Notes: a model not told the origin generated them from the sequence alone. DNA of 62,620 bases, filler included, from Malassezia furfur (GCA_052055015.1; 17 parts of 17 records of this genome joined end to end with filler, not necessarily neighbours in it); one strand, 5' to 3'; positions 863-62,428 are shown, numbered from the whole stretch's first letter. Made by a program: numbers and translations.

Positions 863-2039
863 ATGGTAGGTAGCGCCCCAGCGGCTCATGGCAGACGACC
901 GTGCAACGCATCAAAGAGGTCGAGGATGAGATGGCCCGTACGTGACGCACTCACCCAGGCACGCAAAAGAACAAGGCGACCGCGTACCATCTCGGCCAGC
1001 TGCGTGCGAAGCTCGCGAAGCTCAAGCGCGAGCTCATTGCGCCGAGCGGCGGCGGCGGCGGCGGCGGCGGCATGGGCTTCGACGTCGCACGCACCGGTAT
1101 CGCGAGCGTCGGGTTCGTCGGCTTCCCGTCCGTGGGCAAGTCGACGCTCATGTCCGGCCTGACCGGCACGACGTCCGAGGCCGCCGCGTACGAATTCACC
1201 ACACGTACGTGCTTTTTGCTCACGCAGTCACCACCGTGCCCGGCACCATGACGGTGCGTGGCGCCAAGATCCAGGTGCTCGACCTGCCCGGTATCATCGA
1301 GGGCGCCAAGGACGGCAAGGGCCGTGGTCGCCAGGTGATCGCCGTCGCACGCACGTGCAACCTCATCTTTATCGTGCTCGACGTGGGCAAGCCGCTGAAG
1401 GACAAGCAGATCCTCGAGGCGGAGCTCGAGGGCTTTGGCATCCGGCTGAACAAGCGCAAGCCCAACGTGATCGTCAAGAAGAAGGACAAGGGCGGCCTGT
1501 CCATCACCAACACCGTCCCGCTCACCAAGCTCGACCACGACGAGATCCGCGCGGTGATGAGCGAATACCGCATCGCGAACGCCGACATTGCGTTCCGCGA
1601 GGACATCACCGTCGATGAGCTGATCGACGTCATCGAGAACAACCGGATATACATCCCGTGCATCTACGTGCTCAACAAGATCGACAGCATCTCGATCGAG
1701 GAGCTCGACCTGCTCTACAAGATCCCGCAGTCGGTGCCGATCTCGTCGCGCATGTGGCTCAACGTCGACGAGCTGGTCGACAAGATGTGGGACGAGCTGA
1801 ACCTCGTGCGCATCTACACCAAGCCGCGCAAGTCGCCGCCGGACTACACCGCGCCGGTGGTGCTGCGCCGCGACAAGTGCACCATCGAGGACTTCTGCAA
1901 CGCCATCCACCGCGAAATCTTCAAGCAGTTCAAGTACGCGATGGTGTGGGGCACCTCGGCGAAGCACGCGCGCGGCCAGCGCGTCGGCGCCGACCACGTG
2001 CTGGAGGACGAGGACTGCGTGACGATCTTCAAGCGCTAG
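863..2039 (+). CDS. RBG1: DRG1/Rbg1 ribosome-interacting GTPase, 4 exons
   Basis: Splicing introns 866-894, 938-958 and 1205-1227 gives [30 protein letters not shown]...[12 protein letters not shown]...YEFTTLTTVPG...DLPGIIEGA...NKID and a TGS domain. Confidence 0.95.
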
Positions 2040-2104
2040 CGGCGCGCCGCTGTACCCTACGGGTCTATAGTACATGGTAGGCCCCACGAGCCCGCGCGCA
2101 TGCG

Positions 2105-3193
2105 CTACCACGCCGGCGCCGCGCGCACGCCCTCCCACCGCGGGATGGTGCGCCCGATCGCGCCGTCGGCCGCCTGCTTCGCGTGCCGCGCCTTGTCGGA
2201 GCGCACGCCGAGCGCCGGCGTGCCGCGGTTGAGCGCCTCGAGCAGCACGCACGCCTTGCACAGCTCGTTCGACGACAGGTAGCCGCACCGCATGCACGTG
2301 CGCTGCACCGCGCGCTTCACCTGGCCCGCCACATGCAAATTCTCGCCGGCGTGGATGATGTCGATGATGCTCGACGCCCGGATGCTCTCGAGGTCCTTGA
2401 GGAAGGTGCGTGCGTAGCCGCGGTACGCGTTCGGCGAGTAGATGCACTCGGTGCTGAAGTAGTCGAGCTGCTTGAAGTAGGCATACATCACGATCTCCTT
2501 CTCGTACGCATACTTGAACGGCTTGCTCCGCTTGATGCCACTCCCGCCGAACGACGCACCGCCGCCGCACCCGCCGGCCTCGTCGTCGCCCTCGGGGCCC
2601 TTGGTGAGGATCTCGGTGCAGCGCTCGAGGCGCGCAATGTCGCCGCGCAGCACGTTCATCAGGATCGTCTCGGCAATGTCGTCCGCATTGTGGCCCGTCA
2701 CGATGTGGTCCACGCCGAGCGACGCCGCGCCGCGGTCGAGCGCCTGCCGCCGGAACACGCCGCAGAACGTGCAGTTGTTCTTGCGGCCGACGCTCGCCAC
2801 GATCTCGTCCATGGACCAGCCGTAGAGCTCCTTGTAGCCCAGCACGGTGAGCGGCATCGCATACTGCGCCTGGTTGCGCTTGACCGTCTCGAGGCTGTCG
2901 TCGCGGTACCCCGTGATCCCCTCGTCGATGCTCAGCAGGATGAGGTGCAGCCCGTAGTCGTAGCGCTCGTTGAGCGTCTTCATGACGTGCGCCAGCACCG
3001 TCGAGTCCTTGCCGCCGCTCGCGCCGATCGCGACGCGGTCGCCGCGCTGGAAGAGGCGCGCCTCGGTGATCGTGTGGTGCACCTCGGTCTCGAACACGTA
3101 GAAAAAGCACTCCTTGCACACCATCTGGCCCGTCTTGGGGCGCCTCAGCACGGCGCGCGCCTCGCCGCACAGCACACACGGCCGCGGCGCCAT
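2105..3193 (-). CDS. NCS6: Cytoplasmic tRNA 2-thiolation protein 1 (Ncs6/Ctu1)
   Basis: PP-loop [26 protein letters not shown] and terminal CxxC zinc fingers; ATG at 3193. Confidence 0.95.
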
Positions 3194-3241
3194 CAAAAAA
3201 ACGAAGCAGGCGCGCCGCTGAGTCAGCGTGGGGAAACGACG

Positions 3242-3646
3242 ATGCTCGCGCTCCGCCGCTCCGCGGGCCTCGCGCGCCGCGCCCTGCACACGACCGCGCG
3301 CCTGCACATCGACCGCCACGCACACGAGGAGCACGAGCGGCCGGGGTACGCGATCCCCACGCCGTTCTGGGAGCGCGCACTCCTCGGCGTCGGCAGCGCC
3401 CTCGGCCTGCTCGTCAACCCGAGCCGCGGCGACCTGCTCTCGGTGCTCACGCAGGTGTCCTCCTTCCCGAACATCGACCAGCTCGTCGAGCAGATGCGCG
3501 CCACGCACGAGGGGCGCCGCCTGCTCGTCGCGCGCCCGTCGATCAACTCGCGCACCGTCGACCTCGAGGCGCTCTGGGCGCTGCCCGACCACACGTTCGG
3601 CAAGGAGTGGGTGCGCTGGCTCCGCGCGAACCGCGTCGGGCCCGAC
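3242..3646 (+). CDS. COQ4: Ubiquinone biosynthesis protein Coq4, truncated by contig end
   Basis: Presequence [18 protein letters not shown], then NPSRGDL...[34 protein letters not shown]. Confidence 0.85.
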
Positions 3647-3746
3647 NNNNNNNNNNNNNNNNNNNNNNNNNNNNNNNNNNNNNNNNNNNNTTAATTAATT
3701 AANNNNNNNNNNNNNNNNNNNNNNNNNNNNNNNNNNNNNNNNNNNN
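3647..3746. other. Artificial contig linker N44-TTAATTAATTAA-N44 (first of 16)
   Basis: Identical 100-nt linkers start at 3647, 7386, 11118, 14848, 18576, 22303, 26021, 29721, 33417, 37096, 40765, 44427, 48088, 51745, 55372 and 58998; the core has stops in all six frames. Confidence 0.99.
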
Positions 3747-61156: not shown

Positions 61157-61241
61157 CGCGGCGGGTGGAGGAAGGAGCGCTGCACCACACGCGCGTCGAG
61201 CCCATTATAGGCGCCGGAGCGCGTGCACATCTCGCTTTGCC

Positions 61242-61334
61242 GGCCGTATGGTCTAGTAGCATGATTCTCGCTTTGGGAGAGTCGTCCAAACTCGGAATTG
61301 CGAGAGGTCCTGGGTTCAATTCCCAGTGCGGCCC
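61242..61334 (+). tRNA. tRNA-Pro(UGG) with a 21-nt intron (61278-61298)
   Basis: Acceptor stem GGCCGTA/TGCGGCC plus discriminator C, anticodon stem CTCGC/GCGAG, TGG at 61274-61276, T-arm CTGGG-TTCAATT-CCCAG; intronic TCCAAA pairs with the anticodon loop. Confidence 0.95.
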
Positions 61335-61341
61335 TTTTTTT
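61335..61341 (+). terminator. Pol III oligo-dT terminator
   Basis: T7 run immediately after the tRNA discriminator base. Confidence 0.85.
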
Positions 61342-61427
61342 CCTCTCGTTCTCCACGGCTCGCCCCCCCCTCGCTTGCTTCCAACTTTTTTTTTGCGCTC
61401 CTCCACTTTTCTCGTTGCTTCCTCGGC

Positions 61428-62428
61428 ATGCCGCGCGCCGTGTCGAATCGCGTCACCACGGCGCAGACGCAGGCGGCGAATGCGGGGCCGCGCGCCGCGG
61501 CACAGTCGCAGCAGAATACGAGCGCTACGACCAAGAATCCGCTGTTCAATACGGAGCGGTTCGGGCAGCATATCCTCAAGAACCCGCTGGTCGCACAGGG
61601 CATCGTCGACAAGGCGAACCTGAAGCCGACAGACATGGTGCTCGAGGTCGGTCCGGGTACCGGTAACCTGACGGTGCGCATCCTCGAGCAGGCGAAGCAC
61701 CTGACCGTCGTCGAGATGGACCCACGCATGGCCGCCGAGCTCACGAAGCGTGTCCAGGGAAAGTGCGTACACCGCGAACCTAACGCAGGCCCGAGCAGCG
61801 CAAGCTCGAGATCGTGATCGGCGACGTATGCAAGACGCCGCTGCCGTACTTTGACGTGGTGATCAGCAACACGCCGTACCAGATTTCGTCGCCGCTCGTG
61901 TTCAAGCTGCTGTCGCACCGCCCGCTGTTCCGGTGTGCCATTCTCATGTTCCAGCGCGAGTTTGCGATGCGCCTCGTGGCGCGCCCGGGGTCGCCGCTGT
62001 GGGGCCGCCTGAGCGCCAACGTGCAGCTGTACGCCAAGGTCGACCACATCATGAAGGTCGCGCGCGGCTCCTTCCGCCCCCCGCCGCAGGTCGACAGCTC
62101 GGTGGTGCGCATTGTGCCGATCAACCCCCCGCCTGCGGTGCGCTTCGAGGAGTTCGATGGGCTGACGCGCATCGTGTTCTCGCGGCGCAACAAGCAGCTG
62201 CGTGCGTGCTTCTTTGGCGCGCGCGGCGTGCTCGAGATGCTCGAGGCGAACTGGAAGACGTGGTGCGCCGAGCACGGCGTCGTGCCCGACCCCGCGCAGC
62301 CGTTCGCCGCCAAGGTCGACGGCGTGCTCAACCGGCTCGACATGGCCGAGTGCCGCGCGGCGAAGCTCGATGTCGACGAGCTGCTCGCGCTGCTCTCGGC
62401 CTTCCACGAGGAGGGCATCCATTTCTAG
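61428..62428 (+). CDS. DIM1: 18S rRNA dimethyladenosine transferase, 2 exons
   Basis: [53 protein letters not shown]; 26-nt intron 61763-61788. Confidence 0.96.

Follow-up and report, generated by a model that had tools for sequence, protein, structure and literature searches.

The DNA analysed here, a stretch of 62,620 bases attributed to the basidiomycete yeast Malassezia furfur (the window), holds 19 curated genes and one small gene with a ubiquitin-like domain, in whose coding regions we reconstruct 42 GT-AG introns on both strands, most of them extremely short. The window is not one locus: 17 contigs of 3.5-3.65 kb each, in descending size, are joined by spacers of 100 nt (44 N, TTAATTAATTAA, 44 N) at 3647-3746 and at 15 further sites, every ~3.7 kb, so that reading across the spacers is impossible and genes at contig ends are truncated. 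The WD40-repeat gene (10839-11117, minus strand) and Sof1 (25811-26020, minus strand), for example, run off their contigs, their starts lying upstream of the first ATG used, to judge from orthologues of the former with ~150 more N-terminal residues and from a yeast Sof1 chain with 31 more. One gap of 10 N is present at 50680-50689. The G+C content is 65-71% (67% overall), with ~90% G+C at third codon positions of the coding frame. The proteasome alpha exon at 44769-45329 is 100% identical to two NCBI Malassezia furfur proteins (93% to M. psittaci and 88% to M. caprae proteins), which indicates that the DNA is M. furfur or something indistinguishable from it.

Extreme shortness is the rule among these introns. 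Thirty-seven of the 42 measure 21-32 nt and none is below 21 nt, while the remainder measure 37, 38, 47, 103 and 208 nt. Within the short class, lengths of 21 nt (four introns), 22 nt (six), 23 nt (five), 24 nt (five), 25 nt (four) and 26 nt (three) are followed by 27 nt (one), 28 nt (three), 29 nt (three), 30 nt (one) and 32 nt (two), giving over all 42 a median of 25, a mean of 32 and a mode of 22-25 nt, at a density of ~0.7 introns per kb. The initial annotation of the window had arrived at identical counts for the short class and for the absence of anything below 21 nt, and its three examples, 938-958 (plus strand) and 7840-7860 and 10247-10267 (minus strand, quoted as reverse complements), lie exactly where it had placed them.

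The introns also share one layout, with three signals in close succession. All begin with GT, and 41 end in CAG and one in TAG. The donors are GTACGT (28 introns), GTAGGT (5), GTGCGT (5), GTATGT (3) and GTATGC (1), the last being the exception to a GT[AG]NGT pattern that fits the other 41; at position +4, where other fungi usually have A or T, the base is C (33 introns), G (5) or T (4) but never A. A branch-like pentamer of the form CTNA[CT] lies within 12 nt of the 3' end in every intron, as CTCAC (17), CTGAC (15), CTAAC (6), CTGAT (2), CTCAT (1) or CTTAC (1). The form CT[C/G/A]AC is thus found in 38 introns and strict CTRAY in 23, the R position being occupied by C in 18 and by T in 1. The pentamer is separated from the terminal CAG or TAG by 1 nt in 28 introns, 2 nt in 8, 3 nt in 3, and 4, 5 and 8 nt once each, leaving only 1-2 nt before the acceptor in 36 of 42. 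Spacers consist of 39% C, 34% G, 15% T and 12% A, and with 54% pyrimidine a pyrimidine tract is absent. These counts bear out the architecture first described for the window, a donor, a short spacer, a CT(C/G/A)AC branch and CAG without a polypyrimidine tract.

Measured from the presumed branch A, the last G of the intron follows after 5 nt in 28 cases, 6 nt in 8, 7 nt in 3, and 8, 9 and 12 nt once each. In the 37 short introns the presumed branch A occupies positions 16-27 and never a position below 16. The minimum of 21 nt is therefore explained by two spacing limits that add up, a branch A no earlier than position 16 and a last G at least 5 nt beyond it. None of the 42 donors matches [AG]TATCC, the donor that together with a TCCTTAAC-like branch site marks minor (U12-type) introns. 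By their termini, extended donor, branch motif and restoration of the reading frame, the introns would be classed as major (U2-type) GT-AG introns.

The motif is far more frequent than expected from dinucleotide composition. A strict composite pattern (donor GT[AG][CGT]GT, 3-22 nt, CT[ACG]A[CT], 0-6 nt, [CT]AG, total at most 40 nt) has 37 matches on the two strands of the window, compared with a mean of 1.99 (s.d. 1.61, maximum 9) in 200 dinucleotide-preserving shuffles. Every one of the 37 matches falls on a modelled intron, with none antisense to a gene or within an exon; since model building rewarded the motif, this agreement is circular in part. The evidence independent of the motif is provided by homology and by reading frame.

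Homology supports 31 of the 42 introns at the level of the junction. Searches were made with single exons of 20 codons or more, and the spliced models were then aligned by script against the proteins that those searches returned. Orthologue alignments are free of gaps at all three junctions of the DRG/Rbg1 GTPase, all five of the proteasome alpha subunit, all six of RPB7 and all three of the WD40 gene, one of the last being only moderate. From end to end, its exons of 24 and 7 nt among them, the six-exon proteasome model equals the NCBI M. furfur protein P0002, and it aligns without gaps at its junctions to eight other fungal orthologues. Similarly, RPB7 is matched by P0124, P0126, P0133 and P0139, and the spliced DRG/Rbg1 protein is collinear with eight of the nine orthologues shown, the ninth being without the first two exons and mis-splicing the third intron. 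For 14 further introns, either the flanking exons abut in the coordinates of solved chains or Pfam profiles, or the residues gained by reading through equal the intron. Profile continuity applies to the 208-nt SmD1 intron, both Rtf2 introns, the Vps8 intron and the two N-terminal introns of ribose-phosphate pyrophosphokinase (PRPP synthetase), and stop-free introns, when read through, give 8-9 surplus residues relative to human EXO1, the Pkinase profile and the VTT_dom profile. The 11 introns without homology at the junction begin, by their lower coordinate, at 17803, 19990, 32871, 34785, 34181, 46470, 56380, 56289, 55870, 61083 and 61027. Of 10 short exons compared singly with Pfam at E-values up to 10, eight had no relevant match (five no match, three unrelated weak matches), and weak matches to the expected family were obtained for two, Sof1 exon 1 and kinase exon 3.

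Some of the exons are extremely short as well. The proteasome alpha gene contains micro-exons of 24 nt (44682-44705, plus strand) and 7 nt (44735-44741, plus strand), the second of which is flanked by introns of 29 and 26 nt. The first exon consists of the ATG alone in DRG (863-865, plus strand) and Rtf2 (36225-36227, plus strand), and that of RPB7 has 12 nt (36116-36127, minus strand). Public records from other species reflect the same structures as errors. In the RPB7 records P0121, P0123, P0125 and P0131, from M. obtusa, M. equina, M. globosa and M. japonica, introns are retained or mis-spliced at the same positions or an exon is skipped; the M. yamatoensis DRG record P0147 is mis-spliced; and the WD40 records P0265 and P0266 are open reading frame (ORF)-style predictions that end at the next intron, one visibly reading into it. 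That errors recur at the same sites in other Malassezia indicates that intron positions are conserved in the genus and that annotation errors are common. ORF callers, and some gene predictors too, fail on introns of 21-25 nt and on exons down to 3 and 7 nt.

These comparisons bear on whether the segments are introns at all. The window is assembled from small draft contigs glued together, which makes sequence quality a fair question, and the segments might in principle be assembly or sequencing artefacts, or be removed by means other than the spliceosome, for instance by cleavage of the tRNA or Ire1 type. Random insertions and deletions, however, would not bear these signals: the 42 cases present one GT...CTNAY...YAG layout, all on the coding strand, their borders are exact to the base, their removal restores alignment to distant orthologues, and their positions are common to other Malassezia species, where they are seen as retained-intron errors at the same sites. 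We consider the probability of an artefact or of non-spliceosomal removal negligible. Judged from the DNA and its homologues, the existence of the introns, their exact borders, their lengths and their motif geometry are established here, and the view of the initial annotation that they are real and of spliceosomal type is upheld, as is its pointing to Malassezia.

The reading frame provides a second line of evidence. The 31 introns with lengths not divisible by three can be compared in both frames: over the 30 codons that follow, G+C at third codon positions (GC3) averages 0.80 when the intron is spliced and 0.53 when it is retained, and the median distance to a stop is 96 codons when spliced and 33 when retained. 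Six of the 11 multiple-of-three introns contain an in-frame stop, and the other five (6127-6150, 10818-10838, 33839-33865, 43289-43312 and 46197-46220) can be read through. Some of these five could be coding insertions, or segments optionally retained to give two protein forms; the protein region flanking 10818-10838 is indeed variable among orthologues, and two public M. furfur annotations differ by two residues at another intron, 45397-45419. At 10818-10838, in the WD40 gene, the seven residues are absent from three longer orthologues (P0271, P0272 and P0279), and the two orthologues that keep them are those ending at the next intron, P0265 being the one that visibly reads into it. All five carry the full donor and branch/acceptor consensus, and in each the extra 7-9 residues would be a surplus relative to a solved homologue or a Pfam profile, so we regard retention as distinctly improbable.

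Table 1 Introns reconstructed in the window, with the evidence at each junction
Position	Strand	Gene	Length (nt)	Feature	Evidence
866..894	+	DRG/Rbg1 GTPase	29	directly after ATG	gap-free junction with 8 of 9 orthologues shown; ninth without this N-terminal region
938..958	+	DRG/Rbg1	21		gap-free junction in orthologue alignment; in-frame TGA if retained
1205..1227	+	DRG/Rbg1	23		orthologue alignment; MMR_HSR1 profile 33 to 39 over junction, 5 residues between
4805..4836	-	ribose-phosphate pyrophosphokinase	32	joins ATG exon to 40-nt exon	residue count matches Pribosyltran_N 1-19 and PRPS1 chain residue 23
4743..4764	-	ribose-phosphate pyrophosphokinase	22		count matches Pribosyltran_N 1-19 and PRPS1 residue 23; internal stop if retained
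4232..4253	-	ribose-phosphate pyrophosphokinase	22		exons match 2h06_A 23-176 and 179-318; split codon plus one residue give 177-178
5722..5743	-	SmD1	22		exon 2 begins at SmD1 residue 6 (3jb9_F, 1b34_A); exon 1 plus split codon give exactly 5 residues
5437..5644	-	SmD1	208	longest in window	LSM profile continuous, 25 to 28, 2 residues between
6127..6150	+	Exo1	24	multiple of 3, stop-free	read through, 8-residue insertion relative to human EXO1 chains
7840..7860	-	riboflavin kinase	21		exons match 1n05_A 7-128 and 132-161, exact continuity
10818..10838	-	WD40-repeat gene	21	multiple of 3, stop-free	moderate support; variable region
10247..10267	-	WD40-repeat gene	21		gap-free junction with 5 orthologues; internal stop if retained
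10003..10024	-	WD40-repeat gene	22		gap-free junction with 5 orthologues
17803..17827	+	eIF2B-like gene (LbH_EIF2B domain downstream)	25		frame and GC3: downstream GC3 1.00 spliced, 0.53 retained
19990..20027	-	LRR and Exo_endo_phos (CCR4-like) gene	38		frame and GC3
25783..25810	-	Sof1	28		exons match 5wlc_LU 32-90 and 92-448; split codon gives residue 91
32871..32973	-	BAR/PH-domain gene	103		frame: 510 open codons spliced, stop after 11 codons retained
34785..34806	-	protein-kinase gene	22	unconserved N-terminal part	weakest case: motif and open frames, GC3 ~0.7 on both sides
34181..34203	-	protein-kinase gene	23		frame and GC3
33839..33865	-	protein-kinase gene	27	multiple of 3, stop-free	Pkinase positions 66-83 (18): 17 residues spliced, 26 retained
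36084..36115	-	RPB7	32		seven-exon model gap-free at 6 of 6 junctions with 4 full-length orthologues
35995..36019	-	RPB7	25		same seven-exon alignment
35917..35944	-	RPB7	28	donor GTATGC	RPB7 orthologue alignment
35781..35805	-	RPB7	25		RPB7 orthologue alignment
35589..35618	-	RPB7	30		RPB7 orthologue alignment; in-frame stop if retained
35500..35522	-	RPB7	23		RPB7 orthologue alignment
36228..36255	+	Rtf2	28	directly after ATG	exon 2 begins at Rtf2 profile position 2
36520..36542	+	Rtf2	23		Rtf2 profile 84 to 86 over junction
43289..43312	+	Vps8	24	multiple of 3, stop-free	profile positions 60-68 (9): 9 residues spliced, 17 retained
44635..44681	+	proteasome alpha subunit (PRE6 type)	47	only TAG acceptor	model identical over full length to NCBI M. 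furfur protein P0002
44706..44734	+	proteasome alpha	29	after 24-nt exon	identity to P0002
44742..44767	+	proteasome alpha	26	after 7-nt exon (44735-44741)	identity to P0002
45331..45355	+	proteasome alpha	25		identity to P0002
45397..45419	+	proteasome alpha	23		identity to P0002; second M. furfur annotation P0001 differs by 2 residues here
46470..46493	-	VTT-domain membrane protein	24		272 open codons spliced, in-frame stop after 6 codons retained
46197..46220	-	VTT-domain protein	24	multiple of 3, stop-free	read-through 130 residues for 122 VTT_dom positions; surplus of 8 equals intron
56380..56401	-	triose-phosphate-transporter (TPT) family gene	22	branch motif CTTAC	frame and GC3
56289..56314	-	TPT family gene	26		frame and GC3
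55870..55893	-	small gene with ubiquitin-like domain	24		in-frame stop if retained; ubiquitin profile 22-70 in downstream exon
61083..61119	-	beta-adaptin	37	flanking exons of 12 and 8 codons	frame
61027..61055	-	beta-adaptin	29		643 open codons spliced, internal stop if retained; Adaptin_N from profile position 19 in next exon
61763..61788	+	Dim1 rRNA dimethylase	26		exons match 6rbd_y 29-100 and 102-317; split codon gives residue 101

The curated gene models of Table 1 were preceded by two automatic procedures. A motif-free gene finder that accepted any GT...AG of 15-400 nt was dropped, as it merged neighbouring and antisense genes and made spurious long introns. Automatic models restricted to the motif contained five wrong introns (3407-3450; 4743-4832; 5437-5581; 44624-44767 or 44635-44734; 61027-61119), which were replaced after reading of the sequence together with homology.

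Five look-alikes below 21 nt were also considered, four of them nested in longer introns and one free-standing. Two nested forms, 36524-36542 and 45401-45419, were rejected because both would break frames fixed by homology; a third, 55870-55889, breaks open frames, and the longer form has a consensus donor; and the fourth, 34785-34802, was rejected on its weaker donor alone, the frames there being ambiguous. The free-standing candidate, an 18-nt segment inside Rtf2 (36615-36632, plus strand, GTGTGC...CTGACGCAG), is coding: its six codons correspond to Rtf2 profile positions 112-117, and the Rtf2 score drops to 65 bits, from 84, when these and neighbouring codons are removed. The motif by itself is therefore not enough to identify an intron.

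Two motif-bearing GT...AG segments lie just upstream of start codons and are possible introns of 5' untranslated regions, one of 74 nt at 3218-3291 (minus strand), before the tRNA-thiolation (PP-loop) gene, and one of 46 nt at 33350-33395 (minus strand), before the BAR/PH gene. The initial annotation had claimed 43 introns in total, of which 42 are recovered here and the 43rd was not identified; one of these two segments may be it.

Encephalitozoon microsporidia, a lineage allied to fungi, have only a handful of introns per genome, compared with ~0.7 per kb in the window. Within Malassezia itself, tiny introns are already known and are already in the public annotation of M. furfur, and the statement of the initial annotation that short introns are reported for the genus agrees with the accessible text of three papers. 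For M. sympodialis, 5350 introns averaging 30 bp are reported, 99% of them with support from RNA sequencing (Zhu et al. 2017, NAR, PMC5389616, Table 2), the same genus and the same scale as the mean of 32 and median of 25 nt in the window; a review describes very short introns in Malassezia genes (PMC7426719); and in the annotation of M. restricta the minimum intron length was set to 20 and then to 15 (PMC6473144). In their accessible portions these papers (PMC5389616, PMC7426719, PMC6473144) give sizes only, with no donor or branch consensus, spacings or floor, and a literature search whose coverage left subscription journals largely outside found no description of these features, or of a spliceosome inventory, for Malassezia.

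The closest parallels in signal layout are found elsewhere. According to the available text of Irimia and Roy (2008, PMC2483917), in which the term Malassezia does not occur, the pyrimidine tract has been lost in Yarrowia lipolytica, Trichomonas vaginalis and Giardia lamblia, which have a strong WCTRAYN-type branch consensus and a branch anchored to the AG, at a distance of AC (2 nt) in Yarrowia and of ACAC (4 nt) in the other two. The layout in M. furfur would correspond to this anchored branch-point 3' structure, with a fixed branch distance and without a polypyrimidine tract; in 28 of 42 introns A-C-N-C precedes the AG, the 4-nt spacing that the same passages give for Trichomonas and Giardia (PMC2483917). 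On the other hand, the M. furfur branch is often CTCAC, outside the CTRAY core of the WCTRAYN systems described there, and Yarrowia introns are long, with a median of 204 nt in the text available (PMC2483917), whereas those of M. furfur are compressed as a whole.

In total length, the comparable cases in the sections available to us are introns of 15 nt in Stentor, of 18 nt in the nucleomorph of Bigelowiella natans and of 23-25 nt (type B) in Trichomonas vaginalis (PMC12316389). Like M. furfur, these organisms have introns of 15-30 nt with uniform signals, but they belong to other supergroups, with AT-rich introns and a different consensus, whereas M. furfur is a GC-rich (67%) basidiomycete yeast with a minimum of 21 nt. 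In Stentor, as far as the accessible text goes, all small nuclear RNAs (snRNAs) are present and spliceosomal proteins are mostly conserved (PMC9505925). Such cases suggest that tiny introns need not require radically different machinery.

Taken together, the segments are very probably ordinary major-type (GT-AG) spliceosomal introns of M. furfur, compressed near the physical minimum length. Three near-invariant signals would make up almost the whole of each intron: a donor of 6 nt, GUACGU or similar; 6 nt or more of spacer without particular composition; and a 3' block of 9 nt, CU[C/G/A]AC-N-CAG, that would carry both branch point and acceptor. The strong donor and branch signals could be recognised directly across the intron, each findable without help, and the acceptor would be whichever AG comes first after the branch A, in most cases 4-5 nt on; no pyrimidine tract would then be needed. 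The two spacing limits may reflect the room that the machinery requires. As the signals are the classical GT, CTNAY and YAG, the simplest reading is conventional major-type splicing on very compact substrates; the identity of the branch A, the order of binding of the small nuclear ribonucleoproteins (snRNPs) and an essentially conventional machinery are inferences on this account.

Several points weigh against this explanation. The 11 introns without junction homology stand on motif, open frames and GC3, the weakest being 34785-34806. Because the models were built with a motif bonus, introns with unusual signals may have been missed and the uniformity may be somewhat overstated. Splicing itself, the branch nucleotide and lariats we infer from sequence and homology, and the sample is 62 kb in 17 small contigs, not a genome. 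Furthermore, the commonest branch motif, CTCAC, departs from CTRAY. In pairing with U2, CTCAC puts a mismatch beside the branch A, a possible hint that U2, or the way the branch is recognised, has changed.

The initial annotation had gone further and proposed that U1 and U2 can hardly occupy such introns together in the standard way, so that the spliceosome may be modified. In budding yeast and human, roughly 40-50 nt are needed from donor to branch, and the pre-spliceosome keeps the two sites far apart, which makes the steric worry reasonable. With as little as 15 nt from donor to branch A, simultaneous binding of the U1 and U2 snRNPs would call for a modified spliceosome or assembly path, in which early factors are lost or shrunken or the donor and the branch/acceptor are read as one composite site. 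The sharp floor, with no branch A before position 16 and no intron under 21 nt among the 42, resembles a steric limit. The usual arrangement at the branch and acceptor is a branch-binding protein plus U2AF, for which little room is left where the acceptor follows the branch A by 4-5 nt (36 of 42 introns) and a pyrimidine tract is missing, and the 7-nt internal exon of the proteasome gene is too small for two full spliceosomes at once.

Nothing in the window supports a modified machinery. The only content of the window that bears on the spliceosome appears to be a conventional SmD1 gene (5171-5757, minus strand), which encodes a core protein, has two introns of its own (22 nt and a very GC-rich 208 nt) and whose exon 2 can be aligned over its full length with SmD1 chains of solved spliceosomes; no snRNA gene was found by Rfam matching across the whole window, and no other feature there speaks to the machinery. 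The signals are the classical set, and the full snRNA complement and most spliceosomal proteins persist in lineages whose introns are as short or shorter, although the Stentor authors, in the portion of their paper available, conjecture that altered regions of branching factors avoid clashes (PMC9505925). A modified spliceosome is, on this balance, unlikely, and conventional splicing of compact introns is the explanation that we prefer.

The contribution of the window is an explicit geometry for the M. furfur intron: first a donor, then 6 nt or more of spacer, then a branch/acceptor block of 9 nt. The layout adds a case to a known design, that of the anchored branch, in a lineage for which our literature search found no description of it. 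A 2025 paper, in the part accessible, still counts a Trichomonas intron of 23 nt among the shortest (PMC12316389). Introns of 21-25 nt are among the shortest known in any eukaryote, and in this culturable human skin yeast they are the rule.

Transformation and CRISPR in this yeast are reportedly the subject of a preprint. The sharp limits on spacing (branch A at position 16 or later, acceptor 4-5 nt beyond it) and the frequent departure of CTCAC from CTRAY lead us to raise, with low confidence, a more specific proposal: that donor and branch/acceptor block may be read jointly, as one composite site of ~21 nt, by an early complex whose geometry is unlike the standard cross-intron U1-U2 pre-spliceosome, possibly with a changed branch-binding sequence in U2 or reduced SF1/U2AF. 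If this were true, a genetically tractable yeast would become a minimal system in which to explore the closest possible packing of splice signals.

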